Origin: a virus
DNA: 55,215 nucleotides
Reading direction: 5' to 3' (one strand)
Virus record (IMG/VR): IMGVR_UViG_3300002098_000007
Location: 1-55,215 of that record
The notes beneath the pieces are model-generated. The model saw only the letters and a list, made by a program, of their open reading frames with translations, ran no database searches and was not told the origin of the DNA. Positions 15,727-40,560 of this stretch are shown here, one piece after another. The number at the start of each line of letters is the position of its first letter. The first letter of the stretch is position 1. Made by a program: the position numbers and the translations under genes.

Positions 15727-16146
15727 ATGAAGTTCAACCCCGGCCAGCCGCACGGCACAATTGTGGGCCACGAGTGGGCCCGCTACGAGCAAAACGGCAT
15801 CCTCTACGACGGCGCGGGGTTGATCCCCGAGGCCGCCGCGGCAATAGACAAAGCCGCCGCGAAACCAGCTAAAAACGCGCCAGCGAGCAAAACAAAAACA
15901 GAAGCCAAGGCCGAGCCCAAGGCCCCCGCTCCGCAGGACGATTTGAAGCTAAAAAACGCCACCGAGTTCTTGACTAATTTGCTCTCCGGCGGGCCAATCG
16001 ACAAATCCGTTGTGTTCAAAGAGTCGGACAGCAACTGCCAAGACTGGGGCACCGTGAAGGCCGCCTTTGCGCAGATGAACGGGGTGAGCTTCAAGCGCGG
16101 GCAGTCTGAAATCTGGCGCCTGAACCCTGAGGAGGTTCAGCAATGA
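15727..16146 (+). CDS. Hypothetical protein
   Basis: 139 aa with a GGAGA RBS and a central Ala/Lys/Pro-rich linker. Confidence 0.55.
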   Translation: MKFNPGQPHGTIVGHEWARYEQNGILYDGAGLIPEAAAAIDKAAAKPAKNAPASKTKTEAKAEPKAPAPQDDLKLKNATEFLTNLLSGGPIDKSVVFKESDSNCQDWGTVKAAFAQMNGVSFKRGQSEIWRLNPEEVQQ

Positions 16147-17717
16147 CATGGGACGCAACTGAGCCGTACATGGCGGAGTCGAAAAAGATCGTCTGGGAGG
16201 TGGCCCCGTACCTACGCGGGCGGGGCTTAGACATTGGCGCGGGGGACTTCAAAGTCCTGCCTCACGTCATCAGCGTGGACAACATGCACCACTCGCAGTT
16301 CGGGTTCAGCGTCAAGCCGGACGTGATGTGCGAGGCGAGCAACTTAGATGTCTTCGGTAGCCAGTCGATGGATTTTGTTTACAGCAGCCATACGCTTGAG
16401 CACATTGCTGACTACGAGAATACGCTTAAAGAATGGTGGCGCGTCATCAAACAAAACGGCTACCTCATACTCTACCTGCCCGATGAGGACGAATACCCCA
16501 AGGTGGGCACCCCACACGCCAATCCTGATCACAAGTGGGACGTCAACTACGACAAAGTAGTTAACGCCATGAGTTGTGTCAAGGGCGGGTGGGATTTGAT
16601 TGACTTTCAGAAACGTAATGCTGACAACGAGTACAGTTTGTATTTTGTGTTTAAAAAGCAGAACTCTGACAAGTTCAAATTCAGTTACAAAAACCCTAAG
16701 CCTGAAAAAACCGCCTGCGTAGTGCGTTACGGCGCGTTCGGAGATATGATGATGGCTTCCTCAGTGTGGGCCGGGCTCAAAAAGCAGGGTTATCACGTCA
16801 CGGTGTTTTGCTCGCGCCCGGGTAGCGATGTTGTCACTAATGATCCCAACATAGACAACCTGGTGCTGTTTGACAAAGACCAAGTGCCTAATGCGAACCT
16901 GGTGGATTTCTGGGGTTATCAGGCCAACAAGTTTGACAAGTTCGTAAATTTGAGCGAGTCGGTTGAGGGTACGTTCCTGGCTATGCCCGGGCGCGCCCCG
17001 CACAAGTGGCCCGCCGCGTTACGCCACAAGCACATGAACGCCAACTACGTTCAGTTCTCACACGAGCTAGCGGGCGTGCCGCACGAGCCGCAGGTGAAGT
17101 TCTACCCCACTACGGAGGAGCTAGACTGGGCCCGTAAAACTCGCGCCAAAATGGGCGACGGGGTCATCATGTGGTCGCTGGCGGGGTCTTCTGTGCACAA
17201 AACCTGGGCCGGACTTGACAACATACTCGCCGCGGTGATGACCAATTTCCCCTCGGTGCATGTGGTATTGGTCGGTGGGCCGGAGTGCGTGATGCTGGAG
17301 GCTGGATGGGAGAACGAACCCCGCGTGCACAAGACCTCGGGCAAGTGGAGCATACGCCAGAGTCTGTCGTTCTTGTACGAGTGCGACCTGGTGATTGGCT
17401 CCGAGACCGGGGTGCTGAACGCGGCGGCCTGTCTCGACGTGCCTAAAATTACGTTGTTGTCACACTCAACACACGAGAACTTGACCCGCGACTGGAAGAA
17501 CGTGATACCGATCGCCTCGGAAAACACCACCTGCCCCGGGCGCGGCAACAACGACGCCCCCGCGTGTCATCAACTGCACTACGGCTGGGTGCACTGCAAA
17601 CAAGACCCCCACCAGGGCGTTGCGCAGTGCCAAGCCGACATCAGCGTCGACACCGTATGGCAGGCCACCTACGGCGTCATCAAAGCTGCGCTCGAGCGCA
17701 ACAGGAAGGTAGCGTAA
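16143..17717 (+). CDS. Fusion protein: class I SAM-dependent methyltransferase (N-terminal) + glycosyltransferase family 9 (heptosyltransferase-like, C-terminal)
   Basis: 524 aa. The N-terminus has GLDIGAGDF (motif I) and FVYSSHTLEHI...NGYLILYLP (Methyltransf_11-like). The C-terminus has VVRYGAFGDMMMAS...HVTVF, VLVGGPEC, SGKWSIRQSLSFLYECDLVIGSETGVLNAAA, the GT9 pattern. Its ATGA overlaps the upstream gene. Confidence 0.8.
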   Translation: MTWDATEPYMAESKKIVWEVAPYLRGRGLDIGAGDFKVLPHVISVDNMHHSQFGFSVKPDVMCEASNLDVFGSQSMDFVYSSHTLEHIADYENTLKEWWRVIKQNGYLILYLPDEDEYPKVGTPHANPDHKWDVNYDKVVNAMSCVKGGWDLIDFQKRNADNEYSLYFVFKKQNSDKFKFSYKNPKPEKTACVVRYGAFGDMMMASSVWAGLKKQGYHVTVFCSRPGSDVVTNDPNIDNLVLFDKDQVPNANLVDFWGYQANKFDKFVNLSESVEGTFLAMPGRAPHKWPAALRHKHMNANYVQFSHELAGVPHEPQVKFYPTTEELDWARKTRAKMGDGVIMWSLAGSSVHKTWAGLDNILAAVMTNFPSVHVVLVGGPECVMLEAGWENEPRVHKTSGKWSIRQSLSFLYECDLVIGSETGVLNAAACLDVPKITLLSHSTHENLTRDWKNVIPIASENTTCPGRGNNDAPACHQLHYGWVHCKQDPHQGVAQCQADISVDTVWQATYGVIKAALERNRKVA

Positions 17718-17720
17718 CTT

Positions 17721-18677
17721 ATGAGCACTTCGGGCTCTTACTCATTCACGGTCAACCGGGATCAAATCATCCGGCAGGCGATGCTTACCATCGGCAAATT
17801 GGACGAGTCCGAAGTGCCCAACGCGCAGGAGGTCTCAGACTGCGCCTTTACGCTCAATCTGCTCATCAAACAGTGGCAGGGGCGCACTGACTTTGCGCCG
17901 GGTCTCAAAGTGTGGACGCGGCGTCGAGGTCACCTGTTTTTGAACGGAGCCTCCGGACAATATAGCGTTGGCCCGTCCGCTGTGGGTTGGACTGAGAACT
18001 ACGTGTACCCGCTCACCACCGCGGGAGCTAACGCTGCTGCCACCGCAGTGGTGGTTAGCTCGGCTTCAGGCATCGCCACGGGTTACAACATCGGCGTGCA
18101 GTTGGACTCGGGGTTGTTGTTCTGGACAACTGTAGCGTCGGTTGCTGGCACTACGGTGAACCTAAACGCCCCGCTGCCTAGTAAGTCTTCCAGCGGGTCG
18201 CAGGTATTTGCGTACCAGACCACTGCTCAGCAACCGTTGACAATTGAGACCGCGGTGTTGCGTGACAATCAGCTGAACGACACCCCGATGAAGATCATGA
18301 CGGTGCAGGACTACGACTACCTGCCTAGCAAAGTTGCGCCGTTGAACATTGGCGACCCCACGGCAATTTACTACGAGTTCCAACTCGGCAACTCTTATCT
18401 CTACACCGACATTGCCGCTGCTCAAGACGTCAGCAAGCATCTGGTGCTCACGTACTTAGAGTCCGTTCAGGATGTGCTTCAGGCATCTGACAACTTTGAG
18501 TACCCGCAGGAGTGGTTCCTGCCGCTCTCGTTAGGACTCGGCAAGCAGATCGCGCCGATGTTTAATGCGAGCTGGACAGCGCTGATGCAGGACAACTACG
18601 TCGAGGCGCTTTCAATCGCCCGACGTAAAGACCCCGAGCGTAGCAGTATGTTCTTTCAACCAGGGGCCGAAGAGTGA
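17721..18677 (+). CDS. Head-to-tail adaptor, P22 gp4-like N-terminus
   Basis: 318 aa. N-terminal RDQIIRQAMLTIGKL...VSDCAFTLNLLIKQWQG parallels the remembered P22 gp4 pattern (LVRAALRKLGV...AVDDLEAMMAEWYQDG). Its position precedes the gp10-like gene. Confidence 0.5.
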   Translation: MSTSGSYSFTVNRDQIIRQAMLTIGKLDESEVPNAQEVSDCAFTLNLLIKQWQGRTDFAPGLKVWTRRRGHLFLNGASGQYSVGPSAVGWTENYVYPLTTAGANAAATAVVVSSASGIATGYNIGVQLDSGLLFWTTVASVAGTTVNLNAPLPSKSSSGSQVFAYQTTAQQPLTIETAVLRDNQLNDTPMKIMTVQDYDYLPSKVAPLNIGDPTAIYYEFQLGNSYLYTDIAAAQDVSKHLVLTYLESVQDVLQASDNFEYPQEWFLPLSLGLGKQIAPMFNASWTALMQDNYVEALSIARRKDPERSSMFFQPGAEE

Positions 18678-20146
18678 AAGCGATACCGCTGTTTGGCGAT
18701 GGGGTCAACGCCTATTCCCCGGTGGTGTCGCGCCAACGGCGCTTGAACTGTTTTTACGACGTACGCAAGGACGGCGACAAGTACAGCTCAATACTCCGCG
18801 GTACGCCGGGTAGCGTTCGTTTTGTGCAGCTGCCCACGTACCCCGTGCGCGGTTGGCGCGTGGTGGGTAGTCTACTCTACGTAGTTGCCGGCTCGGCTCT
18901 CTACTCGGTTAACACTTCGGGTGCGTACACGGTGTTGGGGGCGCTGACAATCTCAAACAGCTCCGTCAGCATGTCTGACAACGGGGTGCAGTTGGGTATG
19001 GTGGACGGGGCGTCGCTTTACTGCTACACGCTGGTGACCGGGAGCTATTCTCAATCGGCTTTGAACACCGCGGGTTCGTTCGGCAAGGTGACCGATGCGA
19101 ACTTCCCCGCCGGGGCTACCTCGTTGGCGTTTCTGGATGGACGCATAATCACCAACCGCCCGAGCTCTCGTCAATTCTACGTCTCTGAGCAGTATGACTT
19201 GACGGCTTGGACAAACGTGAGCTCGCTGCCCACCTACGGCACTAAGGAAAATAGCTCAGACCAGTTGCTAGCGGTTGACGTTCTAAACGGTGCGTTGGTG
19301 TTGTGGGGGGCGCAGTCAATAGAGTTCTGGCAAGACGTCGGCAGCTTCCCGCTACCCTTCCAGCGCATTAACGGCGCTACGCAGACCTGGGGTCTCGCCT
19401 CGGTATACAGCCGGGCGTTCCTCAACAACACGATGATCTTTTTAGGTCAGAACCCCCAGGGCGGCGTTCAGGTCATGCTGCTCAACGGATACGCGCCTCA
19501 GCGGGTGAGCACCTCGGACATTGAGAACATCTTCAGCAGCTTCAGCACCGTGACCGATGCCACCGCGCTGACGTACATTGTTGACGGACACCCGATGTAC
19601 CAGATCAACTTCCCCACCGCGAACCGTTCGTTTTTGTACGATGCGCTTACGGGTATCTGGCAGGAAGTGCAAACTGGCCTCGCCATTCAGGCCCGACACT
19701 ACGGCAACCTCGGGGTGGCTTTCAACGCTGAGAATTACATCTCGGACTACAGCTCGGGCAACATCTATCAACTCCGCACTGATGTCTACACCGACAACGG
19801 TTCACCAATCAAACGTCAAGTCGCCTCGCGCCACATGCACGCCGGGGGTAACGAGCTCGCACTATCGGAGCTCTGGCTTGACATTGAGACCGGTGTAGGG
19901 CTGCAGGCCGGGCAAGGCGTTGACCCCCAGATCATGCTCCAAGTCTCCCGCGACGGGGGGCGCACCTTTGGCGCTGAAAAGTGGGTGTCGATTGGTAAAG
20001 TGGGGCAGTACCTTTCGCCCCGGGCGTATTGGAAGCGTCTCGGCTCTGCAAAAGATTTTGTCTTCCAATGGACGGTGACTGACCCAGTAAAGTTCACAAT
20101 TGTAGGCGGCTCGGCACAGCCCCGGGAAACTACTAACAATGGCTAA
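18674..20146 (+). CDS. Tail hub / tail accessory factor, P22 gp10-like (phage stabilisation protein family)
   Basis: 490 aa with a GTG start overlapping the upstream stop. By eye it is colinear with remembered P22 gp10 blocks (SIEFWQDVG..., MYQINFP...FLYD, LQVSRDGGRTFG...YWKRLG). Confidence 0.6.
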   Translation: MKAIPLFGDGVNAYSPVVSRQRRLNCFYDVRKDGDKYSSILRGTPGSVRFVQLPTYPVRGWRVVGSLLYVVAGSALYSVNTSGAYTVLGALTISNSSVSMSDNGVQLGMVDGASLYCYTLVTGSYSQSALNTAGSFGKVTDANFPAGATSLAFLDGRIITNRPSSRQFYVSEQYDLTAWTNVSSLPTYGTKENSSDQLLAVDVLNGALVLWGAQSIEFWQDVGSFPLPFQRINGATQTWGLASVYSRAFLNNTMIFLGQNPQGGVQVMLLNGYAPQRVSTSDIENIFSSFSTVTDATALTYIVDGHPMYQINFPTANRSFLYDALTGIWQEVQTGLAIQARHYGNLGVAFNAENYISDYSSGNIYQLRTDVYTDNGSPIKRQVASRHMHAGGNELALSELWLDIETGVGLQAGQGVDPQIMLQVSRDGGRTFGAEKWVSIGKVGQYLSPRAYWKRLGSAKDFVFQWTVTDPVKFTIVGGSAQPRETTNNG

Positions 20147-20811: not shown

Positions 20812-23658
20812 ATGGCTGAAAACGCACAAAATTATGGATGGCCTCAAAACGCAGAGCCTTCTACCTATTCTTTGCCAAGTCTTAGCGATATTTCAAAAGC
20901 AAGAACAAATGCTCGTCAGTTTGGTGACGGTACTGCCTATGCGCTTGATTTCAATGTAAACGGTCAAAATTACACGTTTGTGCCTAAAAACGTTGCATCA
21001 AATGGCGGCGTTACTGCTGGAGAAAACACGTATTTGCTGCCTTACTTTACGGACGCAAACAATCAAAAAGACTTTAACAAAAATGCTCAAGCGTTTGATC
21101 TTTCCTCAAACACTGGTTTAGCAAATTACCTTCAAAGCCAAGGTCAATCAACTAATGGTTATTTAATCCCAAGCGACAAAGTATCGTTTGATGGAAATGT
21201 GTTAACCCAACCGACAAGCACTTTGGGCGGTTCATTGTCTGGCCTTAAACAAACAGGCGATGGGTTTTCTTATGGAATTAGTGGCGGTCATGGTCAACGT
21301 TATCTGACTTCTACAGGTGAAGTTCATGACCCTTACGAAACAAAAAGCTCATTACTTGGTGATATTTTTGGTGGTGTTGGACAAAGCATTTCCGATTTTG
21401 CAAACACAGATTTGGGCAAAGCGGCTTTAGCTGCTGCCTCTATTTACGCAGGGCTGCCTCCTGAGGCTTCTGCTTTAGACGTTTCCGGAGCAGATGTTGT
21501 TACTGGAAGCATGGCGGGCGTAGCGCCCACGGCTGAGGCCGTCGCGGCAGGGCAAGCCGCCGCTGATACGACTGCCGAGGCGGCGGGCGTTGCAGCAACG
21601 CCCTCGGCTCCGGCTTTAACGACTTCTGATTTAACTGCTAATGGTGCTGTTTATTCTCCAGATCAAGGCGTTTGGATTGATCCTAAAACCGGGCAGATCG
21701 CGGCAGGCTCAGCCGGGGTTGCTCCGGACGCTTCGTCTTTTATTACGCCGATTGACACTACGAGTTTTCAATACACCCCGCCGAGCGTCGGCCCCGCCGT
21801 TCAAGTCGCTAGCACCGACGCTGGCGCGGGCGTAGCCGAGGCTGCACAAGCCGCACAGCCCAGCACATTGGCTTCTGGGTTGAGCACAGCACCCGAAATG
21901 ACCGCTCAGCAGACCCTAGACGCCATAAACGCGGAACAGCAAGCCGCGGGCGTGACTTCGGCGGCTGCGGCTCCCGCAACTGCGGCTTCAACGCTCAGCC
22001 CCACCACTCAGTCCGCGCTCAGTTCCGCGTTGAAAGGGGCTGCCGTTTCGGGCGGCATAGCCGCGGCTACGGGGGGTGACGTTGCTAAGGCGGCGTTGAC
22101 CGGCGGGGCTGTTGGGGGTGCTGTTGGGGGTGCAGCCCCCGCAATCAGTTCAGCAATTGGGCCAACTATGACAGATACCTTGGGAACCACAGGCGGGCAG
22201 GCCGCCACTTCGGCAATCACTAGCGCGATTCTAGGCGGAACCGTAGCCGCGGTTACGGGCGGTGACTTCCTGAAGGCCGCGCTCACCGCGGGAACCGTGG
22301 GGGGCGTTGCTTCCGCTGCAGGAGCAGTGAGCAACGCTATAAGTTCAGCCCTGGGTGTCACCCCTACAACAAATACAACAGGAGGCAACGTGGCCACAGG
22401 TTCGACTGGGACGACTATGGACGCCTCACAAATTCAGGCCGCGGTGCAGGCCTATGTTGACGCGGGATACTCTCAGGAGCAAGCTGCGCAGTTCGTGGCT
22501 GACGCTACGGGTTCCAACGTCGATGTTGTGAACAACGCGGTCATCAACGGGGTGGGTTCAATCACCACCAGCGACCAAGGCGCTTACACGCTCGCTTCAG
22601 GCGTCTCCCAGGCCGCAGGGGTTAACCCTGCCAACATTACCAACCCCGCCGGCGGAGCTGCCTCAGGAACCAACGTCATTACTGCCGCACTACAGGCCGC
22701 CGCAGCTCAGCAAGCCGGACAGCAACTCGCCGCCGGGGCAACCGGCGCAGCGGGTGTGTTGGCTCCGGCTTACACTGCCGCAGGCGCTAAGCAGGCCGCC
22801 GCACAAACCGGCGCCGCACAGACCCTAGCCAGCGCGTATGGCACGGCAGGGGAGCAACAGATCGCGGGCTTGAAAGACGCTCAGGGCACGGTGGCCAACA
22901 TCTTAGGTGTTGAGACCGCGAATCAACAGCCCTATCAAGCGCTGGGCACCGGAGCGGCTAGTACGCTGGCTGCGGGGCTCGCGCCGGGTGGGCAGTTCAA
23001 CAAACCTTTCAGCACCGCCGACATGGCCAACGTCATGCCTGCGTACACCTTTGCTGAACAACAAGCCCAGGCCGCGATGGCTAACAAAATGGCCGCCGGG
23101 GGACAGAACCTGAGCACCAACGCTGTTCAGGGTGCGGGTACGCTGGCCGCCGGGTTGGCGTCTCAGTACGAACAGCAGGCTTTTAACCAGTGGTTGCAGT
23201 CAAACAACCTGAGCCTAGGCGCGCTGCAGAACGCCGTAGCCACCGGACAGACTTCTACGGCGCAGTTGCAAAGCGCACTACAGCAGGCCGGACTCAGCAG
23301 CGAAGCTATTCAGCAGGCTATTGGGCAGGTCGGCGCTACCTCAACGCTCGGCGCTGCTCAAGCTACGGGTGCGGGGCAAATTGGCGCGGCTAACGCGCTG
23401 GCGGGTGCGGACGTTAACGCCGCGGGGGCTACTGCTTCGGGCATACTTGGGGCTTCTAAGGCTCAGGCCGCAGGCACCACCGGCACAGCCAATGCGCTGA
23501 ACACCGCTATCGGCAATATCAGCACAAATACCGTTCAACAGAACGCCACTACGGCAGCCAACAGCCCGATTAACAACCTGATTGCGCAGAACCCGGCAAA
23601 CACCCTGGCTAGCGGGTTGTCTCAGACCTCAGCTACCGGCGGAACCTTGAAAATTTAA
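20812..23658 (+). CDS. Internal virion / ejection protein candidate, largely Ala/Gly/Thr/Gln low-complexity
   Basis: 948 aa, first of three large ORFs between the tail hub and the fibre. Residues after ~210 are almost entirely A/G/T/S/Q. Confidence 0.5.
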   Translation: MAENAQNYGWPQNAEPSTYSLPSLSDISKARTNARQFGDGTAYALDFNVNGQNYTFVPKNVASNGGVTAGENTYLLPYFTDANNQKDFNKNAQAFDLSSNTGLANYLQSQGQSTNGYLIPSDKVSFDGNVLTQPTSTLGGSLSGLKQTGDGFSYGISGGHGQRYLTSTGEVHDPYETKSSLLGDIFGGVGQSISDFANTDLGKAALAAASIYAGLPPEASALDVSGADVVTGSMAGVAPTAEAVAAGQAAADTTAEAAGVAATPSAPALTTSDLTANGAVYSPDQGVWIDPKTGQIAAGSAGVAPDASSFITPIDTTSFQYTPPSVGPAVQVASTDAGAGVAEAAQAAQPSTLASGLSTAPEMTAQQTLDAINAEQQAAGVTSAAAAPATAASTLSPTTQSALSSALKGAAVSGGIAAATGGDVAKAALTGGAVGGAVGGAAPAISSAIGPTMTDTLGTTGGQAATSAITSAILGGTVAAVTGGDFLKAALTAGTVGGVASAAGAVSNAISSALGVTPTTNTTGGNVATGSTGTTMDASQIQAAVQAYVDAGYSQEQAAQFVADATGSNVDVVNNAVINGVGSITTSDQGAYTLASGVSQAAGVNPANITNPAGGAASGTNVITAALQAAAAQQAGQQLAAGATGAAGVLAPAYTAAGAKQAAAQTGAAQTLASAYGTAGEQQIAGLKDAQGTVANILGVETANQQPYQALGTGAASTLAAGLAPGGQFNKPFSTADMANVMPAYTFAEQQAQAAMANKMAAGGQNLSTNAVQGAGTLAAGLASQYEQQAFNQWLQSNNLSLGALQNAVATGQTSTAQLQSALQQAGLSSEAIQQAIGQVGATSTLGAAQATGAGQIGAANALAGADVNAAGATASGILGASKAQAAGTTGTANALNTAIGNISTNTVQQNATTAANSPINNLIAQNPANTLASGLSQTSATGGTLKI

Positions 23659-23669
23659 GGACTAAACAG

Positions 23670-25325
23670 ATGGCTATCTCACTTTCTTCAGGCCTGCCTG
23701 CGCCTTCTACGCTGCCTACGGGTCTGGCTGAAATACCCATGCAGGGGGACTTTAATGCGCCGCTTAAGGTGCAGGCTCCGGCCACGGTTGACGTTCTGGG
23801 GGAAACCTCACGTGCGTACAAGTTGTCAGATCAGATGATGCAACACCGGGAAAAACAAGAGGAAGAGCAAGACCGGCTGCAGGTCAACGACTACGTCAAA
23901 CAGGGCGGCAACTTCAGCACCCCGGAAGGCATAAACAAAGCCGCGCAGGATTTACGCGGTAAAGTCTCCGCCAAATCGTATCAAGAACTAGTGACCCAGG
24001 CTCAGCAGTCGGCCACGTGGCAAACTAAGATGAACGAGGCGTATGCTAAATTGCCCGAGCAGCAGTTCAAACAGACCGAAGCACAGAACGAACTGGTACT
24101 GCAGCAGCTCGAGCGCGCTAGCATGGCGTACGACGAAGCCGCAAAGACTAAGGGCGAACCCGCAGCAATTGAAGACTTTAACGCTGCTAAAAAGGCCGCT
24201 ATCGCCTACGTCAGCAACCTGAAAACCCCTGACGGCAAGCCCATGCTAGGTGAAGATTTCATTTCTAGCTATTCCGAGATGTCACCCGCGATGGTGAAAT
24301 CGATGCTCGAAACTAGCAAATTTCATCAAGCCCGACTCAGAGACGCTTCAACAATTCGCTTAAACAACGCCAAAGCGCAACAAATCGAGCAGGGCGGGCC
24401 TGAGGTCGCCCGGCTCGCCGCGCTCGAGGAAGAATTCGGAAAGGACAGCCCCGAGTACAAGGCCGCGCTGCTCAAAATGCAGGGTAAAGGCGGCGCGGGC
24501 GGCGCGGGCGGTAAGGGCAACATGAACCCGGACGCGATTGATATTGCCGCCGAGCGGTTGTTGGTGGGTGACACCACCGCGTTGACCAACATCGGACGCG
24601 GGGCACAAGGCGCAGCGGACATCGCAGCCATCAACAACCGCGTGGCCACGCTAGCTAAGGAGCGTTTCGCCAATCCGCAAGAGGCCGCACAGCGCATAAT
24701 GCAGGCTCGGGCTGAACTGCGTTCCGCCAGCAAGGGTCTTGATACACTCGCCAGCCGTAGCGCCAAAATTGACTCCGCAGCGCTTGAGGTTGACAAATTC
24801 GCCGACAACGCGCTCAGCGCGCTTGACAAAGTGTCCCGGGGGGACATTGTTCCGGTTAACAGCATCCTGCGCAAAGTGGCCACTGGCTCGGGCTCGCCTG
24901 AGGAGGTCGCCTTTGCCACCTACGTGCAGTCGCTCTCCGGCGCGTATGCGTCGGTAATCTCACGCGGTAACCCGACTGTGAACTCGCAGCGCGAGGCGGC
25001 GGACATCATCGGCAAAGACATGAGCAAGCCTCAGTTCCGCGCGATGATAGCCGCGCTCAAGAACGAAGCCAAAGCCGTGCAGCAGTCTTCAACCGAGGCG
25101 GCTAAAAACATCAAAGCCGAGGCCTTTAACCCTCAAGGCTCTGAACCCGGTAAAAACGCTACCCCGGCGACCGCTCCGGCCCCGACACCTGGCGGGGGTG
25201 GCCCGGTGAAGATTAATTCTCCCGAGGAGTTAAAAAAGGCAGTGTCTGAGGGCCGTTTAAAAATCGGTGGACATTTTGTGGGGCCTGATGGCGTGGACAG
25301 GGTGCTCAAAAAGGAGCCTAAGTAA
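23670..25325 (+). CDS. Internal virion / ejection protein candidate (coiled-coil rich)
   Basis: 551 aa with a central [12 protein letters not shown] linker. Position is analogous to podovirus ejection proteins. Confidence 0.5.
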
Positions 25326-28300
25326 TGAGCTGGCTTGACGAATACTCGGTGCCGTTTGACCCGGGCACGGGCGGTGACAGCTGGGACAACGCCGGGAGCG
25401 CGGCCTTCGGCGTGTACCCGCAGATGAGCGGACGCCGTAAGGCGCAGACTCCCGAGTCGGTTGAGCAGGCTAAAGCAGTGCCGGTCTCTCTTGCTCGAGG
25501 TTCGGTGGCTTCTGGTCTGGGTCTGCCCGTAGACATTGCCAACGCGATGAGCAACCCTGAGGCGGGCTTGCCTATTTCGCCTGCTGAGGGGGAAGACATT
25601 TTCTCCGGTCAACAGAAGCAACTCCCTTACGGAACTGAGTTCTACCGCAATAATCTACCCCTCAAGCAGGAAGGCCCCGTCAACGTAGCCGCTGAGGAAC
25701 TGGGCACAATGATTCCTGCGACTGAGGCGCTGGCTCAGGGTGCGGTCAAAGCGGGCAGGCTCGCGGGCCAGGGTGCGCGGGCACTCGCCCCCACCGCAGG
25801 CGCCATGGCTATGCGGGCGGCTGAGGTCACCGGCGCCCCCGTGCGCGGGTTGGGGGTGGTTAAAGAAAAGGGCGGCAACTGGCTTGTTAATTCGGTTGAA
25901 GAGGGCGTACAGGGTTTAAAACAAAACGTCTTGAATGAATTAGGTTTGAAAAACCTAGCCGAACGGGCGGGCGCAGACGTTGCTGAAGAAGTAAGAGTTA
26001 GACAACAACCTACAGAGGCTTTAAACAGTTGGATTGACAAAAAACTCACCAAGTACATTAAAAACGAAATGGGCACTGCGGAAGACCCTATTCGCAAATT
26101 GGCCGAGCAGGACATTTTACATGTCAACCCTGACACTTTGAATTTCAACTTAGAAACCTACGGCAAGTACCCGTCTGAAGGTCAAAGGTTTTTAGCCAAA
26201 TCTGACAAAGCTAAAGCATGGGAAGGTGCTTCGGATTTGAAAATTGGCAGCGGTACGCGTGACAACCCTTATCGCCCGGGCGAGCAGATGTTAGAGCACG
26301 GTGTGAACGAGCCCCGCGACCTGCCTGCCGATTTGGGGTTCGATCACGTTATTGACGTTTTGAGGGAAGAACTCGCTTCTGGTAAGCTCAAACCCGCGGA
26401 CTTGGAAAAGATCAGCGTGGCGGATGCCGTCAAACGTACACATGCTTACAACGTAGAGCGCGAAGAGGCTATGCGTAAGGCCGCGTTGCAGAGCATGGAG
26501 GGTATGCCCGTTGCGATGCAGTTTCCCGACAATAGCAAAATTGTACAGCTAACTAAGCCCGGACAGTTCGCTGCCGAGTCTGACGCCATGGGCCACTCGG
26601 TTCGAGGCTACGAACCCGCAAAGGGTTCAACCGACTGGGTTAAAGAGTCTGGCAACTCGGGCAGTGGCAGCTATGGACACGGCGGGTGGGAGGGAGTTAA
26701 GTCAGGTCGAGCTCAGGTTTACTCGGTACGCGGGCCTGAGGGCAAATCGTTCGCTACGATTGAAGCCGGAAGACCTCGGCTTTACGGCGAGACCGCCGTC
26801 GACTACCGAGAGTTGACGCCCGAGAACTTTGACAAAAAGTACGGCGCGGGGTTTCTGGAAAAACAAGCCCATGATGTTACTCAAATCAAAGGGCCTAAAA
26901 ATGAAAAAGTAGACTCTAAAAAAGCCGAACAGATTAAAGATTTTCTCAACTCTAAAGAGTGGGGTAAGGCGAGTGATCTTGACAAAGTGGGCTTGACGGA
27001 CACCAGAAACTTACAAGATTTAAGCAATCTCGCGGGCGATTTGTATGACGTCACCGGCAAACCTCGACATCTGATGGAAGACGTCTTAAAAGAAGCGATT
27101 GAAAGCGCCAATTTGCCTCGTTTTATTTCAAGAAGCGACGCTATAAAAGCGTTGGGCTTAGCCGGAGCAACGGGCGCTGCGGGGGCCGCGCAAGCCGCAC
27201 CTGCTGAGGGCATGCTCGAGCCTGGAAATATTGACCTACACGCGCGCCCCGTAGTTAAGAACAAAGACGGCTCAATCAGCACTGTGCGCTCGATGTCAGT
27301 CAACTTTGACGGCAAAGAGGTGCTCATTCCTACGGTCTCAGACGACGGTAAAATAATGTCTGACCGAGAGGCTATTGAGGTTTACAAAAAGACCGGCAAG
27401 CACCTGGGCAAGTTTAAAACCCCGGCGCAAGCCACCGCCTACGCTCAATCCCTGCACGAGGCGCAGGCTCAAGAATACCTACCTAAAGGTGAAAATAAAA
27501 TGGCAGACAAGAACTGGCTCGACGACGTATCCGCCCCCGCAGCGGACTCGCAATACGACATGGAAGAGTACTCGGCCCCGGCGGGCGAGACCACTGTGCA
27601 GCGTATCAAACGCCTAGGCCGCTCCGCCGCAAAAGAGATGGGCCTCACCGGCGAGCAGTCTGCAAAGAACCAGGGTCGCGTACCGCCCGAGGCGGTTAAA
27701 AAAGCGCTGCTCGGCACGGGCGAGGCGGGCCTGCAAATGCTGACCGGCGGAGTGTCGAGTGCGGTGGGGGGTTTAGCGGGATTGGGCCGCATAGGGTATG
27801 GGTTAGTCACGGGTGAAGGTGGAGAGGCTATGCGTAAAGGCGCCGAAGTGATGACCGCTACGCAGAAAGCAGGCACCTACGAACCCCGCACCGAGACCGG
27901 TAAAGCGATTAGCGAAACCGCAGCGGTGCCTTTCTCGCTGGCTGGCGAGTACGCCGGTAAAGCGCTCAAGCCTGTGGGCGGGGCTATTGGCGAAGCCGTG
28001 GGCGGTGAACGGGGGCGCATTTATGGCGAGGCCGCCGGGCAGGCCGCGGGCGAGTTGGCTCCGCAAGTCGCCCCGGTGCTTTACGGCGGGCGTAAGGCCC
28101 TGACCGAGGCGGGTAAAAAGCCAGTCGCCGTTCAGCCTTCCAATGCGCAAGAAGCTGCGGCTATCAAAGCTCAGCAGACGGGCTACGTGTTGCCGCCCTC
28201 AGAGGCTCGCCCCTCGCTGCTGAATCGCTTTATTACCGGCTACGGCGGCAAGCTCCAGACCCAACAAGAGGCCAGCATCAAGAATCAACCCCTCACCAAT

Positions 28301-29221
28301 ACCCTCACCAAAAAGGCGCTCGGCATCGCAGAAGACGCGGAGCTGTCAACTGAAACCCTCAACGCCGTACGCGCCAAGGCTGGCGAGGCGTATCAAGCTG
28401 TCAAGGACACCAAAGAACCCATTTACAGCAACACCAAATACAAGCAGTCGATTGACGCGCTGAGCAAAGACTGGCAGGCCGCTGAGCGGGACTTTCCGGA
28501 AATCGCCAAAAACAAGGGTGACATCACTGACTTGCAGAACATGATGCGCAAGGCGCAAATCAGTCCCACGGGGGCGATTGAGATGGTTAAGCAGTTGCGC
28601 AGCGAGGCTAAGACTAATTTGAAGGCATTTGACAAGCCCGACAAACAGGCCCTGGGCCGTGCGCAACGCCAGGCGGCTGAGGCGCTTGATCAACTCGTTG
28701 ATGACAACTTGAGCCAGAACACCCTAGTCACCAAAGCCAACCCCGACCTTGTAAAAAATTACCGTCAGGCACGGGAGCTTATCGCCAAGTCTTATGACGT
28801 TGAAACCGCCTTGAATGAGGCTACCGGCAACATCGACGCTGCTCGGCTGGGTCGGTTGTTGTCTAAGAAGCAGCTCACCGGCTACCTCAAAGACATTGCC
28901 GAGTTTCAGCGCGCATTCCCCAAGGCGGCACAGCTGCCTGAGCGTATAGGGGCCGCGCCGGGTATTAGCCCGTTGGACGTTGCTACTGCCGGAATAGAGG
29001 GCACTTCGGCGCTCGCAGCGGGTAAGCCCGGCCTTGCCGCGGGGGCTGTCGGCACTGTGCTAGGCCGTCCGGTTGCGCGCAGTATAGGGCTGAGCGAGAG
29101 ATACCAACGGGGGCCCGGCTCGGCGCAACAGTTTGACCTTTCAGGACGTAAAATTTTACCTAAAGGCGCGCCCCTCGGCGCTGCTGGAGCACAATCAGCT
29201 GTTGAGAGACAAGAACAATGA
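25325..29221 (+). CDS. Large internal virion / ejection protein candidate
   Basis: 1298 aa, the largest ORF of the block. It has several modules separated by Ala/Gly linkers, including [42 protein letters not shown]. Confidence 0.55.
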
Positions 29222-30552
29222 AATTACTCATCATCGATACCGACGGAGTCGGCTTGAGTTTCGCTTTCCGTGCTAGTATAGCGGGTCATCAAGTGCGTTG
29301 GTTTATAGAACCGAAACCTAGCAATAACAAAGCCACCGGCAACGGTTTTAAGGGTATTGAGAAGATCGATAACTGGGTGCCGTCGGTTAAGTGGGCCGAT
29401 CTCATCATCCAGACCAGCAACGACAAATACGTTGAGAAGCTAGACTTCTTCCGCAAGCAGGGGTATCCGGTGTTCGGCCCTACGCCTGAGAGCGCGAAGT
29501 TGGAGATTAGCCGCGGTGACGGTATGAAGTTGATGGAGAAGGTGGGCATTAAGACCGTCCCCTACGAAACGTTCAAAAACATGAACGAAGCTAAGAAGCA
29601 CGTTGAGAAAACGGGTGAGCGCTTTGTCTTCAAAACCCTGGGTGACAACGAGGACAAATCACTCACGTACGTGGCTAAGAGCCCCGCAGACCTGATTGGC
29701 TGGATGGAGCGTCTGATTGCTCGCGGCGAGCAGCCTAAAGGCGACGTCATGCTGCAGACCTTTGTTAAGGGTATCGAGATGGGCGTCAGCCGCTTTATGG
29801 GTAGCAAAGGCTGGGTTGGGCCCTGGAATGAGAGTTTTGAACACAAAAAGCTCATGCCCGGTAACTACGGCCCCAATACCGGCGAGATGGGCACAATTGC
29901 CTACTTCACCGAGGAAAGCAAGTTGGGCGAGGAAACACTGGGCAAGCTAGAAAAAGAGCTGCTCAAACTCGGCCACACCGGCGACGTTGCTCTCGGGTTC
30001 ATGATAGACGAAAAGGGCCAGCCCTGGCCCACGGAGTGGACGTGTCGCTTCGGTTGGCCCATTGCCAACATGATGCTCGGTGCGACCGAGGGCGACCCGG
30101 TTGAGTGGATGCGCGACGCGCTGAACGGTAAGGACACTACGTCCTTCAAAACTGATATCGGCTGCTGCGTGGTGCTGGCGCACGGGGACTTTCCGCACGG
30201 TAATATGACCAAGCGCGAAGTCTCCGGAGTTCCGCTCTACGGAGTTACTAAGGGTAACAAAAAGCACATCCACCCCCAGGCCATCAAGATTGACGTACTG
30301 CCCGATATGGACGGCGAACAGATGACCCGCCGCCCGTTGTGGAACACCTCGGGCGACTACGTAGCGGTGGTCACCGGGTACGGTCGGGACGTAAAGCAGG
30401 CTAGCTCTCGGGCCTACAAGACCGTTGAACAACTGCACATCAGCAATATAATTGTGCGTGATGATATTGGCGAAGAGTTAGAAGAAACCCTGCCCAAGCT
30501 GCACGCTATGGGTTATGCCCAACACTGTGAATTTGATACCGGGAGTAAGTAA
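29218..30552 (+). CDS. PurD-family (phosphoribosylamine-glycine ligase-like) ATP-grasp ligase, divergent
   Basis: 444 aa, colinear by eye with PurD. Matching blocks: VFGPT..SAKLE.S, FVFKT...(A-domain), [20 protein letters not shown] (vs DHKR..D.GPNTGGMG), [22 protein letters not shown] (vs GLMI...P.VIEFNCRFGDP) and a C-terminal ...VRDDIG. The N-terminal GGREHA motif is replaced by [10 protein letters not shown]. Confidence 0.8.
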
Positions 30553-33500
30553 TGAGTGCATTTCTCGCGCCGATGTTCGGCGCAGGCTACCAAGCCTTTA
30601 ATAACCAAGGTTCGGCAGTCCTCTCCGGAGGTAAACTCTACACATATCAGGCGGGCTCCACCGCACCACAAGCCACGTGGACAGACTCTACGCAGTCAGT
30701 GGCTAACGCTAACCCCGTAATCTTGAACTCGGCGGGGCGGCCCGCGAATGAGATCTGGCTGCAAGGGGGGAGCTCTTACAAATTCGTGTTGACTGACGCC
30801 AACGGCACGCAGCTGGGTGCGTGGGACAACATCTCGGGTTTGAACGACGCTAACTACCAGGGCTTCAGTGAGTGGATCCCGTTCACTACGGCGCCTACCT
30901 ACGTTAGCGCTACTACGTTCACCGTGAGCGGTAATCAGGTAAACACCTTCCAGGTGGGACGCCGGGTGCAGGCGTTCATGCTCAGCAAGACTCTTTACGG
31001 CACCATCAACACCGTCACGTACAACTCAGGCGCGGGCACTACCTCAGTCGTCGTTTCGCTTGACAGCGGTAGCTACGACTCAACGCTCTATGCGGTGAGT
31101 TACGGCTTTATGAGCGCGGTCAACACCTCGCTCCCCGTGGCTAGCACCTCTGCGGTTATTCCCGCGAGCCTGCAAGGGCAGACGTACACCACGGCCTCGG
31201 TGTCGGGCACCACAGGCACGTATACGATGTCGCTAGCGCCGTCGTTTACCTTGGCGACCAACTCGCGAGTCTTCGCACGCATGCCCGAAACGCGAACCGG
31301 CGCGGCCACGCTGAACGTGAACGGTGGGGGCGCAGTCGCTATCAAGCAGTACAACGCCGCGGGCAACAAGATTGACCCCGTGTTGTTCATCAATCAGCCA
31401 ACCGACCTAGTTTACGACGGTACTCACTGGGTGTTGATTGACGCCTTTAGCACCGTAGCGGCCTTTACCTCGGGCACTATTGATGGGGTTGTAATCGGCG
31501 GTACGAGTCCGTCCTCGGGGGCGTTTACCTCGTTGAGCGCGAGCGGGTTTACGCTGAACGGTACGCAGACTATGACCGGCGCGGCTATTAATGAGGCGCA
31601 GAGTAGCGCCATAGCCAGCGCTAGCACTGTGGATCTAGGCTCCGCCGCGGGTAACTACGTTCACGTTACGGGTACGACCGCGATTACGGCTGTTACCCTG
31701 GCCCAGGGCAGCTCACGCACCGTAGTGTTTGACGGCGTGTTGACGCTGACTAACGGCGCTTCGCTGATACTGCCTAACGGGGTCAATATTACCACCGCCG
31801 CGGGCGACGTAGCCACGTTCCGGGGCGAGGCCGCGGGCGTTGTACGTTGCGTGGCGTACACCTCGGCCAACGGGGTCTTTAACACGCTGCAGAACCGGGC
31901 GCTGACCTCGGGGCGCGTGACGTATGCGGGCACAGCCGGTCTGCTGCAAGACTCGGCCTCCTTCACTTGGGATGGAACCACCCTCGTAACCCCGTCTCAC
32001 ACGACCAACACCGCAACCACCGGCTCGACCAACAAAGGCCCGTTGAACTACGGCACGTTGAGTTTCAGCGATACCGGGATCGTGCAGTCTGCGCAAACAA
32101 GTGTAAACAGCTACTTCCAGAACGTCATCCAAAACACCAGCGCGGGCACTGCGGCATCGGCTGAGTTCATTGCGTACAACGACCAAGGAACAGCCTCGAC
32201 CAACTACGCTACCGTGGGTATCAACTCAAGCGGTTACAGCGGCACGGGCTCAATTAACGCACCGGGTTATGCTTACTTCCTGTCGGCCAGTACAGACTTG
32301 GTGTTGGGCACTATTGGCGCAAACGGCATCCACTTCACCACGAACTCATCGGCCACGGACGCACTGGCAATCAGCTCTGCGGGTGCGGTATCCCTACCCG
32401 GCGGCGCAGCCAACGGTGTTGCTTACCTCAATAGTTCTAAAGTCCTGACCACTGGTTCTGCGCTGACGTTTGATGGGGCAACACTTGGGGTTAACAGTGT
32501 TTCTGTTGGTCGTGGTGCAGGCGCTGTGTCTACCAACACTGCGGTGGGTGCAAATGCTTTGGCAGCAAATACGACAGGCTCAAGCAATTCTGGTTTTGGT
32601 GTAAATGCGCTGAACTCAAATCAAGACGGTATTCAAAACAGTGCTTTTGGGTATCAAGCGCTCAATGCAAACGTATCTGGTTATTACAACGTAGGGATGG
32701 GCTACCGAGCCCTTTTCAATTCCACAGGTAACAGTAATGTAGGCATAGGAGCACAAGCTCTTCAGGCAAACACCACAGCCTCTAACAACACTGCTGTGGG
32801 TTATCAAACCTCGTACAACAACACCACAGGCGATCAAAACGTAGCAATTGGCAAGTGGGCTCTGCTTACCAATCAAACGGGCGCAAGCAACGTTGCGGTT
32901 GGTGCTAGGGCTCTTGAGGCCAGCACCGCCAACTACAACACGGCCTTGGGGTTTGCTGCCAGTTTCACAAACACGACAGGAACTCGCAACGTAAGTGTGG
33001 GCTATCTTTCCCTGTACACAAACTCTACAGGCACCAGTAACACCTCGGTGGGAGCATCTGCCCTTGTGGCGAACACCACAGGGTCGAACAATACCGCCGT
33101 CGGAGATGGAGCGCTGTCTTCCAACACAACAGCGCTTTACAACACCGCCGTGGGCTATCAAGCAGCCGTCTCAAACACAACTGGGGCAGGAAACACGGCT
33201 GTTGGCAGAACCACACTCAACAGCAATACGACGGGTAGTGGTAATACCGCAGTGGGTGGGTTCGATGGCTCTGTTTTGCCCTCAATGTATTACAACTCAA
33301 CAGGCGCCAACAATACCGCCATGGGTGTTGGCGCTCTTTCAAATAACACAACGGGTAACAATAGCGTAGCAATTGGCTTCCAAGCGGCATATGCAGGTGC
33401 TGGAGCTGCCGTCACTGCTGTTGGCTTTCAAGCCGGGTATGCCAACACCGACAACTCGGGTGGGGTATTTGTGGGTTACCAGTCCGGTAAACTTAATTCA

Positions 33501-34418
33501 ACGGGAAATGGAAATACCGCAGTTGGCACGTTTTCATTGACAACAAATAGTACGGGCGCCTACAACACTGCGGTCGGCTATCAAGCTCTCAACACTAATA
33601 CAGCCTCCAACAACACCGCTGTGGGTTATGAAGCGGGGTATACAGGAACAACTGCAAGTGGCAATACGTTTATTGGTTCTCAAACTGGATACGGCATTAC
33701 AACTGGCACTGGCAATACGTTTATTGGAAACAACGCATTTTCTGCTTCTGGATATTTTGTAACTACTGGTTCTAAGAACACCATTCTTGGCAGCTACTCA
33801 GGCAACCAAGGCGGCCTCGACATTCGCACAGCAAGCAACTTCATCGTGCTGTCTGATGGGGATGGAAACCCACGGGGCTTTTTTGATAGCAACGGCGTTT
33901 ATAGAGTGGGTACACCCGATGCCGCTGGTACATCTGGCGTAGGGGTTTCGATTAACCCAACATCATCAGGTGTGCGTGCTGTTAGCGCCGCATCAACAGG
34001 CGCCACTGAAACATTCTCTATGTATTCAACGGGAGCTTCTGCCTATCGTTTCTATGTGGATTGGGGCGGTACTATTCATGCCACATCTATTGTTATTACT
34101 GCCATTTCCGATCAGCGCCTTAAAGAAAATGTCCGTGACATTGATACAGGACTTGGCGCAATCATGGCGCTTAAACCTCGCCGTTTTGATTGGAAAGAAG
34201 GTAAAGGTCAAGATAAGAAAAATGCTGCTGGTTTTATTGCTCAAGAGTTTGAAACAGTATTTCCAGAATGTGTTAGCACATCAAAGGCTGGTGAAGATGG
34301 CATTGAATACAAGAACATTAACCATGAAACACTGATTCCAACTCTGGTCAAAGCCATCCAAGAGCAACAAGCCATGATTGAACAACTCACCACCCGCCTT
34401 GCAGCAGCAGGCATATAA
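30552..34418 (+). CDS. Tail fibre / tailspike with a repetitive beta-helix region and a C-terminal S74 intramolecular chaperone
   Basis: 1288 aa. The N-terminus reads LSGGKLYTYQAGSTAPQATWTD...NPVILNSAGR. About 25-30 degenerate NTAVG..AL..NTTG repeats follow. The C-terminus is SDQRLKENV...AAGFIAQEFETVFPE...ETLIPTLVKAIQEQ. Confidence 0.85.
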   Translation: MSAFLAPMFGAGYQAFNNQGSAVLSGGKLYTYQAGSTAPQATWTDSTQSVANANPVILNSAGRPANEIWLQGGSSYKFVLTDANGTQLGAWDNISGLNDANYQGFSEWIPFTTAPTYVSATTFTVSGNQVNTFQVGRRVQAFMLSKTLYGTINTVTYNSGAGTTSVVVSLDSGSYDSTLYAVSYGFMSAVNTSLPVASTSAVIPASLQGQTYTTASVSGTTGTYTMSLAPSFTLATNSRVFARMPETRTGAATLNVNGGGAVAIKQYNAAGNKIDPVLFINQPTDLVYDGTHWVLIDAFSTVAAFTSGTIDGVVIGGTSPSSGAFTSLSASGFTLNGTQTMTGAAINEAQSSAIASASTVDLGSAAGNYVHVTGTTAITAVTLAQGSSRTVVFDGVLTLTNGASLILPNGVNITTAAGDVATFRGEAAGVVRCVAYTSANGVFNTLQNRALTSGRVTYAGTAGLLQDSASFTWDGTTLVTPSHTTNTATTGSTNKGPLNYGTLSFSDTGIVQSAQTSVNSYFQNVIQNTSAGTAASAEFIAYNDQGTASTNYATVGINSSGYSGTGSINAPGYAYFLSASTDLVLGTIGANGIHFTTNSSATDALAISSAGAVSLPGGAANGVAYLNSSKVLTTGSALTFDGATLGVNSVSVGRGAGAVSTNTAVGANALAANTTGSSNSGFGVNALNSNQDGIQNSAFGYQALNANVSGYYNVGMGYRALFNSTGNSNVGIGAQALQANTTASNNTAVGYQTSYNNTTGDQNVAIGKWALLTNQTGASNVAVGARALEASTANYNTALGFAASFTNTTGTRNVSVGYLSLYTNSTGTSNTSVGASALVANTTGSNNTAVGDGALSSNTTALYNTAVGYQAAVSNTTGAGNTAVGRTTLNSNTTGSGNTAVGGFDGSVLPSMYYNSTGANNTAMGVGALSNNTTGNNSVAIGFQAAYAGAGAAVTAVGFQAGYANTDNSGGVFVGYQSGKLNSTGNGNTAVGTFSLTTNSTGAYNTAVGYQALNTNTASNNTAVGYEAGYTGTTASGNTFIGSQTGYGITTGTGNTFIGNNAFSASGYFVTTGSKNTILGSYSGNQGGLDIRTASNFIVLSDGDGNPRGFFDSNGVYRVGTPDAAGTSGVGVSINPTSSGVRAVSAASTGATETFSMYSTGASAYRFYVDWGGTIHATSIVITAISDQRLKENVRDIDTGLGAIMALKPRRFDWKEGKGQDKKNAAGFIAQEFETVFPECVSTSKAGEDGIEYKNINHETLIPTLVKAIQEQQAMIEQLTTRLAAAGI
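32529..33745 (+). repeat. Degenerate ~14-15-aa coding repeats (NTAVGxxALxxNTTGxx), YadA-head / beta-roll-like
   Basis: Read in the translation of 30552..34418. The DNA copies are diverged, so this is not a perfect tandem array. Confidence 0.7.
34107..34418 (+). other. Peptidase S74 (endosialidase-type) autocleaving chaperone domain of the tail fibre
   Basis: It starts at Ser1186 in ISDQRLKEN (SDxRxK hallmark) and runs to the stop codon. Confidence 0.75.
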
Positions 34419-39859: not shown

Positions 39860-40032
39860 CGTTATGTCCTTTGAGTTATACGTTAAGAATTGACCCGTTT
39901 CTGAATTCCGCGTCCCCTGTTCTATGAACCCGTCGTTCGCACAGGCCCCGCCCCCAGAGTTTCGTTCACATTCAGACTTTTTGCCGAGTGGGTCAAGCTC
40001 AGATGAAAGGTCGGGGCGGGCTTTTAGTTAGC

Positions 40033-40530: not shown

Positions 40531-40560
40531 GTTATATACTCCTGTTTGTGTTGAAAATGT

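Follow-up and report, generated by a model that had tools for sequence, protein, structure and literature searches.

Why would a phage carry, in the middle of its tail genes, a gene that resembles purD? The question is raised by IMG/VR virus record IMGVR_UViG_3300002098_000007, of which a whole stretch of 55,215 nt, referred to here as the window, was analysed. The window derives from a podovirus whose portal is of the SU10 type and whose tail hub is like gp10 of P22. Between the gene of a 1298-residue protein and that of a 1288-residue tail fibre lies a 444-residue open reading frame (ORF; 29218..30552, + strand), hereafter the ligase. It overlaps both neighbours, as the first-pass annotation of this DNA had described: its ATG (29218-29220) overlaps the TGA of the upstream ORF (29219-29221) to form ATGA, and base 30552 is common to its TAA (30550-30552) and the fibre ATG. 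The product is similar to phosphoribosylamine-glycine ligase (PurD), the glycinamide ribonucleotide (GAR) synthetase of the purine pathway. On balance, the evidence presented below suggests that it is a catalytically competent ATP-grasp carboxylate-amine ligase that is derived from PurD, that belongs to a separate paralogue family with new and probably common cellular substrates, and that does not make glycinamide ribonucleotide.

Fold and substrate pocket

The ligase comprises four domains in the order N-B-A-C followed by a C-terminal helix and tail, an assignment based on the ORF, the Pfam families GARS_A and GARS_C, PurD structures and an AlphaFold model. The match to GARS_A (E = 6e-14) scores 52.8 bits vs a gathering score of 27, and the match to GARS_C (E = 1.5e-8) is a borderline pass with 35.3 bits vs 34.8. 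TIGR00877 is matched with E = 2e-35 and the PurD of PDB entry 2ip4 with E = 1.4e-27 across residues 46-420. When the AlphaFold model (pLDDT 92.9, pTM 0.90) was compared with the PDB using Foldseek, the top 15 matches were all PurD chains, with TM values of 0.66-0.79, and biotin carboxylases and PurK ranked far below them. PurT and PurK share the superfamily and domain order with the ligase and give weak matches in the N and B domains (E about 0.02-0.08), but their TM values are below 0.65 and they have no GARS_C-type C domain. The similarity of the ligase to PurD is well beyond chance. The colinearity across the PurD domains that had been read from the letters of the window, including the motifs EWTCRFGWP (residues 273-281) and VRDDIG (residues 413-418), is thus borne out by Pfam, TIGR00877, 2ip4 and AlphaFold/Foldseek.

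Full-length colinearity and a PurD fold are also what a divergent but true GAR synthetase would exhibit, in which case the gene would be an ordinary auxiliary metabolic gene that boosts purine synthesis; in addition, the automatic annotation of the Joint Genome Institute (JGI) names homologues phosphoribosylamine-glycine ligase. The tests for PurD membership point the other way. The TIGR00877 score of the ligase is 122.4 bits, below the 288-bit cut-off, vs 619 for Salmonella PurD in the same test, and the related protein of the metagenomic phage MW202796.1, the homologue P0122 and cellular members score 73-110 bits. The ligase fails Pfam GARS_N (12.9 bits vs a gathering score of 29.5), and its sequence RFGWPIAN breaks the PROSITE PS00184 GARS pattern, R-[LF]-G-D-P-E-x-[EQIM], quoted in PMC3261824. 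Moreover, the gene is located in a tail and ejection operon and not, like purD, in a pur operon, and no other purine-pathway gene was found among the 39 larger window ORFs scanned against Pfam.

Substrate roles were taken from structural papers and mapped onto the ligase by alignment to PurD (EC 6.3.4.13; PDB 2yw2, 2ip4, 1gso and 2qk4), to which it is 20-26% identical. Arg13 and Glu14 of PurD belong to the phosphoribosylamine (PRA) and acyl-phosphate site, and Arg385 has been proposed to bind the PRA phosphate (PMC2978367). The N-domain loop of the ligase (residues 7-16; 29236..29265, + strand) stands in for GNGGREHALA of PurD and lacks this Arg/Glu pair. It differs where Salmonella PurD has VIGNGGREHALAW, the Arg and Glu of GGREHA having become Val and Gly, which agrees with the loss of the substrate loop reported in the first-pass annotation. 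Throughout the family there is no conserved Arg or Glu at the two positions, and the loop is rich in acidic residues (D7, D/E9, D/S14).

The remaining substrate-site changes are located in three further motifs, for which residue frequencies were obtained from 82 full-length relatives, namely 75 representatives of 50%-identity clusters and close homologues. Within residues 207-226 (29836..29895, + strand), the glycine-site Asp of the PurD sequence QDHK is replaced by E208 (76 of the 82), K210 is kept, and GPNTGGMG reads GPNTGEMG, which places E223 (72/82) where PurD has a Gly in a loop beside the active site. Residues 273-282 (30034..30063, + strand) are the counterpart of PurD EFNCRFGDPE. The Mg-site Glu (E273, 77/82) and the acyl-phosphate Arg (R277, 78/82) are kept here; the Asn that provides the second Mg ligand of E-x-N is T275 (76/82), and the glycine-site Asp and Glu are W280 (an aromatic residue in 76/82) and I282, so that a hydrophobic residue follows G(W/Y)P where PurD has GDPE. 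In the C domain, GGRV of PurD is GDYV (residues 379-382; 30352..30363, + strand), with Y381 (58/82) in place of the Arg proposed for the PRA phosphate. Expressed in human PurD numbering, D217, R292, D295, E297 and R385 correspond to E208, R277, W280, I282 and Y381 of the ligase, and the Arg at R277 alone is retained. By its alignment with PurD, the ligase has therefore lost both arginines of the PRA site and, in the glycine site, three residues out of four.

An altered substrate loop and a late-operon location had been taken earlier to argue against simple purine boosting. That argument is strengthened by the additional replacement of the glycine-site Asp/Asp/Glu and the C-domain Arg. Because the TIGR00877, GARS_N and PROSITE tests fail and the PRA and glycine residues are replaced, the ligase, as judged from its sequence, is not an ordinary GAR synthetase or purD auxiliary gene, and a role in boosting purine synthesis is extremely improbable. 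A comparable case is that of the haloarchaeal 'extra' PurD-like proteins Hlac_1553 and rrnAC0307, which were judged not to be real GAR synthetases and which, by description, resemble the ligase in having no GARS_N, a divergent N-terminal loop and a lost Asp in R[LF]GDPE (PMC3261824).

The residues associated with ATP, Mg and the acyl phosphate form a different picture: E96, R99, K139, K147, E187, K210, E273, R277 and RxDIG are all kept. LEISR (residues 95-99; 29500..29514, + strand) is the counterpart of LEGSK in PurD, where Glu100 and Lys103 have ATP and Mg roles (PMC8880213). Both lysines of the strand and B-loop segment (K139 and GDNEDKS; 29632..29661, + strand; GLAAGKG is the B-loop of PurD) are retained; K139 is found in 77 of the 82 relatives, K147 in 58 with Arg in a further 9, and D146 in 45, and the B-loop is acidic in the phage clade. 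Overall, each of K139, K147, E187, K210, E273 and R277 is shared by 58-78 of the 82 members. In a set of 44 diverse members, ten positions are invariant at 27-51% identity, and E96, R99, E187, E273 and R277 are invariant throughout. The protein ends with RDDIG (RNDIG in PurD) and the C-terminal helix and tail (30457..30549, + strand). The helix and tail are specific to the family and not present in PurD; G432 is invariant, and archaeal members share an LHxWGY tail. The ligase thus possesses the ATP lysines, the hinge and Mg-site acids and the acyl-phosphate Arg of an ATP-grasp enzyme, and departs from the pattern at the second Mg ligand, where Asn is Thr275. Together with the N-B-A-C architecture and the GPNTG loop, the acyl-phosphate chemistry is presumably shared with PurD.

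Inteins mark the same catalytic motifs. Approximately 16 fetched homologues longer than 700 residues align to the ligase in two blocks that are split at these motifs, and LAGLIDADG domains are present in the four long homologues that were scanned (P0008, P0121, P0136 and P0149). The junctions fall at three sites within two catalytic motifs (GPN^T221, G225^T/S226 and EWT^C276), as expected of invariable sites. P0195 has a shorter insert that begins in the same way (CYSEDTEVLT) but gives no LAGLIDADG match, and the intein of P0167 was judged from its junctions alone.

These data bear on the proposal that the PurD fold has been reused by an inactive structural or adaptor protein. Such a proposal would account for a gene inside the structural operon, for the change of the Mg-site Asn to Thr and for an unusually acidic B-loop. 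It is at odds with the targeting of catalytic motifs by inteins and with the near-invariance of the ATP lysines, the Mg-site Glu and the acyl-phosphate Arg over 27-90% identity. The ligase is also much more conserved than the neighbouring structural genes, and has conserved cellular homologues. There is consequently very little to recommend an inactive protein.

The paralogue family and its predicted reaction

The substitutions described above are themselves conserved (E208, E223, T275, W/Y280 and Y381) and, by the evidence of the alignments, define an uncharacterised family of PurD paralogues. Its signature consists of EHK[KR], GPxTGE[MQ]G[TS], E-x-T-x-R-x-G-[WYF]-P, RxDIG, a C-terminal LxxxGY tail and the lack of GGREHA, and the ligase has all of these. 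The Thr plus aromatic motif was found in 221 of the 283 fetched proteins and GGREH in none of the 283. A word search yielded 858 family clusters at 90% identity; the representatives of 50%-identity clusters number 3360 at E <= 1e-3, 1232 at E <= 1e-10 and 186 at E <= 1e-30. IMG/VR contains 454 ligase loci. A narrower alignment was used for the locus scans, the diverse family alignment being too variable. PHROGs and PADLOC have no family for the ligase, and BFVD has no close viral structure, the best match (TM 0.45) being to generic ATP-grasp proteins. No relative was found in cultured phages, and the sole relative in the phage database is the metagenomic MW202796.1, at 38% identity. Two distant members, P0255 and P0258 (locus L190), have a C-terminal extension of ~100 residues with a DxDxT-like motif, WIGFDLDKTLA; its identification by eye as a small HAD phosphatase found no support in Pfam or PDB sequence searches.

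Cellular proteins exhibit the same pocket signature, with no GGREHA, NFEHKKLFPGNLGPSTGEMGT, EFTARFGYPT, YRTDIG and a C-terminal LHSWGY. This clade comprises at least 7699 clusters with mutual identity of 67-81%, and its named sources are Woesearchaeota, Nanoarchaeota, Diapherotrites, Chitinophagales, Bacteroidia, Omnitrophota, Acidobacteriota and Deltaproteobacteria. NCBI labels many of the proteins 'phosphoribosylglycinamide synthetase C domain-containing protein' and some 'phosphoribosylamine--glycine ligase'; its pipeline does not call the clade purD, a further point against an ordinary GAR synthetase. A hidden Markov model (HMM) of the phage clade scores the cellular proteins at ~300 bits vs 134 for Salmonella PurD, and, in the reverse comparison, an HMM built from the cellular clade gives 210 bits for the window ligase vs 79 for Salmonella PurD. 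As these mutual scores are far above those of PurD, the phage and cellular proteins constitute one paralogue family distinct from PurD; on TIGR00877 the cellular proteins score ~110 bits. Members such as P0277, P0298, P0351 and P0395 are like the ligase in EHKK, GPxTGEMGT, EFTxRFGYP, YRTDIG, LHxWGY and the missing GGREHA, but they are ~30% identical to it, their B-loop is not acidic, and their genes are solitary. On the chromosomes (loci L192-L203) these genes are located beside genes for superoxide dismutase (SOD) and V-ATPase, beside a radical S-adenosylmethionine (SAM) gene, or overlapping MgtE.

The conserved residues allow a reaction to be proposed. ATP-Mg would be bound in the grasp by E96, R99, K139, K147, E187, K210 and E273, a carboxylate would be phosphorylated to an acyl phosphate that R277 stabilises, and an amine would then attack the acyl phosphate to give an amide. 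The arginines for the PRA phosphate are gone, and an acidic and aromatic set (D7, D/E9, D/S14, E208, E223, W/Y280 and Y381) occupies positions homologous to the PurD substrate sites; the amine thus probably carries a positive charge and no phosphate. As a guess, with low confidence, it may be of a polyamine type or a basic amino-acid type. Since cellular homologues have the same pocket, the substrates would most likely be common constituents of cells, and not a phage-specific DNA base or protein. A virion protein and a cell-envelope component, both put forward as acceptors in the first-pass annotation, are candidate targets, but by the same token a phage-specific protein becomes less likely in this role.

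The tail and ejection block

If the substrates are common in cells, the location of the phage gene needs to be accounted for. The block in which it resides begins with a methyltransferase-GT9 (MTase-GT9; heptosyltransferase-like) fusion recognised by Pfam (16143..17717, + strand). The tail-hub genes follow (17721..20146, + strand) and encode a 318-residue protein (phrog_12985) and a 490-residue P22 gp10-like 'packaged DNA stabilization' protein (phrog_578). Two large genes, for 948 and 551 residues (20812..25325, + strand), are weakly conserved among relatives (23-75% identity). The gene for 1298 residues (25325..29221, + strand), whose stop overlaps the ligase start, is the last large gene of the ejection or DNA-transfer type; this role is assigned by position, and the protein has no Pfam or PHROG match. 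Beyond the ligase, the tail fibre (30552..34418, + strand) has an N-terminal domain that is conserved (GGKLYTYQAGSTAPQATWTD) and ends in a Peptidase_S74 chaperone domain.

The order of MTase-GT9, 318-residue gene, gp10-like gene, large weakly conserved genes, PurD-like gene and fibre N-terminal domain is common to ~100 related loci and persists down to ~40% ligase identity, the fibre domain lying directly 3' of the ligase in most relatives. An upstream ORF of at least 450 residues is present in 72 of 81 related loci, and the 4-nt overlap with the ligase start in 53 of the 81. With the exception of the closest locus (L003), the ligase is 65-88% identical vs 23-58% for the flanking ejection-type genes, which indicates strong purifying selection. 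Its position after large ejection-type genes is kept across phages with differing replication modules. In MW202796.1, a PolB/RNR phage, it follows two proteins of ~500 residues, and in the Pol A phage that encodes P0271 it follows SU10_adaptor and a gene for 1034 residues. P0258 is encoded directly after a Phage_stabilise (P22 gp10-like) gene, and P0280 and P0283 among large late genes. In the cultured relative DSL-LC05, an adaptor and gp10 are followed by three 'DNA transfer' proteins and these by lysis genes, without the ligase; it is this order by which the upstream genes of the window were named, and it makes the ligase an addition. Two cultured strains, Paraburkholderia rhynchosiae WSM 3937 and Paraburkholderia sp. 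C35, have genome contigs on which a relative is flanked by the same tail genes, and a contig of the cultured Rhodanobacteraceae ZG21-1 has a relative with only a weak gp10-like match upstream.

Given its translational coupling to the last ejection-type gene of these P22/SU10-like podoviruses, the ligase would be synthesised along with the ejection and tail proteins, and from the conservation of this coupling we infer that the phage requires the enzyme at the time when those proteins are produced. It may then modify one of them, be packaged with them or provide a small molecule for this stage. P22-like phages insert accessory genes between the last ejection gene and the tailspike, and podovirus ejection proteins carry enzymes; the ligase shares its late-operon position with both. 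The enzymes and genes known from the ejection position of podoviruses include cell-wall hydrolases, polymerases and immunity or exclusion genes. To our knowledge, no ATP-grasp ligase has been reported at the ejection or tailspike position, and none came up in the papers searched.

One function that would explain the location is virion maturation, in which a protein of the tail, the fibre or the ejection apparatus would be modified by the ligase while the particle is assembled, for example through attachment of an amino acid or amine to a carboxylate or through an isopeptide bond. The conserved place between the last ejection-type gene and the fibre, the frequent 4-nt overlap and the retention of this position in phages with unrelated replication modules are all consistent with such a function, as is the co-occurrence of a second enzyme, the MTase-GT9 fusion, in the same block. 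Protein-modifying ATP-grasp enzymes also exist, among them RimK, tubulin ligases and graspetide cyclases; however, we know of no PurD-type enzyme that acts on proteins. Archaea and bacteria in which these phage proteins are missing encode the same pocket in solitary genes. The C-termini of the upstream ejection proteins show no conserved motif that could be a ligase target, apart from the last-codon bias forced by the ATGA overlap, and in neither MW202796.1 nor the P0271 context does the fibre gene adjoin the ligase gene. Modification of a virion protein is therefore considered unlikely.

The other function suggested by the location is that of an ejected effector, packaged with the ejection proteins and delivered with the DNA to ligate a host molecule early in infection. 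The gene is found where podoviruses encode internal and ejection proteins and is coupled to the last of these, and the T7 gp16 transglycosylase and the N4 virion RNA polymerase (vRNAP) are precedents. A homologue of 745 residues, P0193, has a 395-residue Gly/Ala/Ser/Pro-rich region fused to the N-terminus of the PurD-like domain; no domain was recognised in this region, which resembles ejection-protein tails. However, the C-terminus of P0193 looks frameshifted, and the fusion may thus have arisen from misassembly at the usual ATGA junction. The ligase is, furthermore, a compact and confidently folded four-domain enzyme, unlike typical helical ejection proteins, and cultured relatives have the same tail genes without it. 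An ejected effector is accordingly rather improbable. The same low probability is given to a version in which the ligase is loaded in the capsid, is injected with the DNA and forms an amide on a host molecule, and in which the cellular clade carries out the same, undescribed reaction on a common metabolite. Were it true, this would be the first virion-delivered ATP-grasp enzyme.

The second enzyme of the block had already been singled out in the first-pass annotation as a companion of the ligase. The pairing is real: among all fetched loci, the MTase-GT9 fusion is confined to those that bear the ligase (51 of 51), and it has no match in cultured phages. The fibre, for its part, contains a long run of NTAVGYQA-type repeats that by eye are like the head repeats of trimeric autotransporters. 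Heptosyltransferase-type enzymes heptosylate autotransporter adhesins; by analogy, the upstream GT9 fusion might glycosylate the tail fibre.

With regard to transcription, the top sigma-70-like site of the region (30425-30452, + strand; TTGAAC, 16 nt, TATAAT; 10 of 12) lies within the 3' end of the ligase gene, 100 nt 5' of the fibre start. The overall number of such promoter-like sites, 8 vs 7.8 expected, is at chance level.

The hypermodification cluster and significance of the family

The first-pass annotation had also offered, as a possible acceptor, an amino-bearing DNA base made by a cluster at 43.5-49.4 kb. This is a thymidine-hypermodification module on the - strand. It comprises an HD/YfbR-like phosphohydrolase (43749-44252), a thymidylate-synthase-like enzyme (TS; 44325-45311), a split 5-hmdU DNA kinase (HMUDK) with separate helical (45314-46171) and kinase (46168-46749) parts, and an amino acid:DNA transferase (AADT; PF18724; 46929-47954), and is accompanied by a conserved gene for 371 residues (48481-49596) at 61-75% identity. 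The ligase would in this case acylate or extend the amino-bearing hypermodified thymidine that the TS/5-HMUDK/AADT cluster (43.7-48 kb) provides. Both systems are encoded in the window, and in ~10 related contigs an HMUDK/TS cluster is located within 7-15 kb of the PurD-like gene. PRA is akin to a base-less nucleotide amine, which would make an aminated nucleotide a chemically plausible substrate, and an amide ligase is compatible with an amino-bearing base. The tailoring enzymes of thymidine hypermodification are 5-HMUDK, AADT, pyridoxal phosphate (PLP) decarboxylases, radical SAM isomerases and acetyltransferases (PMC8989533, PMC5889632), and unassigned amidoligase-type genes occur in the hypermodification clusters of metaviromes (PMC8989533).

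Co-occurrence of cluster and ligase was examined from both sides, starting from PurD-like loci and from HMUDK loci, and does not favour this acceptor. Unlike the tailoring enzymes, the ligase is located outside the cluster, 13 kb away on the opposite strand in the late operon, and in no genome was it found inside such a cluster. The complete circular genome MW202796.1 has the ligase and none of TS, HMUDK and AADT. Conversely, at 28 loci with the window-type cluster and the replication genes of the window (55-80% identity), the late module is wholly different, and no ligase was found in the 10-22 kb fetched per locus. None of the 164 cultured phage records with an HMUDK-helical/aGPT-type gene is among the ligase matches.

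Where clusters do lie near the gene in the ligase lineage, they are of a second type, 27-44% identical and with no AADT match, while the ligase there is 68-73% identical; the cluster thus varies without co-variation of the ligase. Second-type TS and HMUDK-helical clusters lie 5-10 kb from the ligase gene in L004, L005, L015, L025, L053/L218, L206, L207, L211 and L212, and in four of the second-type cluster contigs the PurD-like gene is merely 29-32% identical to that of the window. This partial co-occurrence fits the genome layout, in which the end of the late operon abuts nucleotide-metabolism genes, and the association is consistent with layout and lineage, not function. The ligase is independent of the hypermodification cluster and travels with the tail and ejection block. 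The pocket, finally, is common to archaeal and bacterial homologues, including cells without the cluster. An amino-bearing DNA base as acceptor is therefore very unlikely. Literature searches for a connection of ATP-grasp or PurD enzymes with hypermodification, tail fibres or virion proteins yielded no relevant paper; only the account of the haloarchaeal PurD-like proteins was of use.

The module itself is mobile. In the window it extends over 38008-49596 (612-residue gene, AAA_24, DUF669, 278-residue gene, HD, TS, HMUDK and AADT) and is 55-80% identical in ~28 IMG/VR contigs (L026-L034, L109-L183) whose late genes are dissimilar to those of the window, a clear case of module exchange between phage lineages.

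Several observations weigh against a free metabolic ligase that acts on common cell constituents. The idea of a cationic amine derives solely from residue changes placed by homology, and Thr at the Mg-site Asn position of the family would permit altered chemistry or a kinase-like reaction. The cellular neighbourhoods (four DPANN-type archaeal contigs from metagenome-assembled genomes (MAGs), a Chitinophagales MAG, an Omnitrophota MAG and a bacterial-type soil contig) contain no conserved partner gene from which a pathway could be named. Strict adjacency to ejection genes and ATGA coupling would be more readily explained by a virion-linked role than by a free metabolic enzyme, and this adjacency is awkward beside the solitary cellular homologues. 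Coverage of the PurD-like phages consists of the whole genome for MW202796.1 and of 10 kb either side of the gene for the other lineage members. Despite these points, the conserved catalytic set, the replaced substrate residues and the shared pocket of the cellular clade lead us to retain a competent carboxylate-amine ligase with new substrates as the probable identity of the protein.

The ligase represents a large, conserved and uncharacterised enzyme family that is common to uncultured podoviruses and to thousands of archaeal and bacterial genomes. The automatic JGI label phosphoribosylamine-glycine ligase would wrongly credit hundreds of phages, as well as the genome-reduced DPANN archaea, with a step of purine synthesis. 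The ligase has also been separated from the hypermodification cluster of the same genome, to which proximity would otherwise link it. The question of its function is testable, as relatives with the same tail-gene order reside in cultured Paraburkholderia strains, and the cross-domain conservation of the cellular clade without a known function merits a separate study. Identification of its substrates would extend the ATP-grasp repertoire by a new reaction and could reveal a new step of virion assembly or of host take-over.

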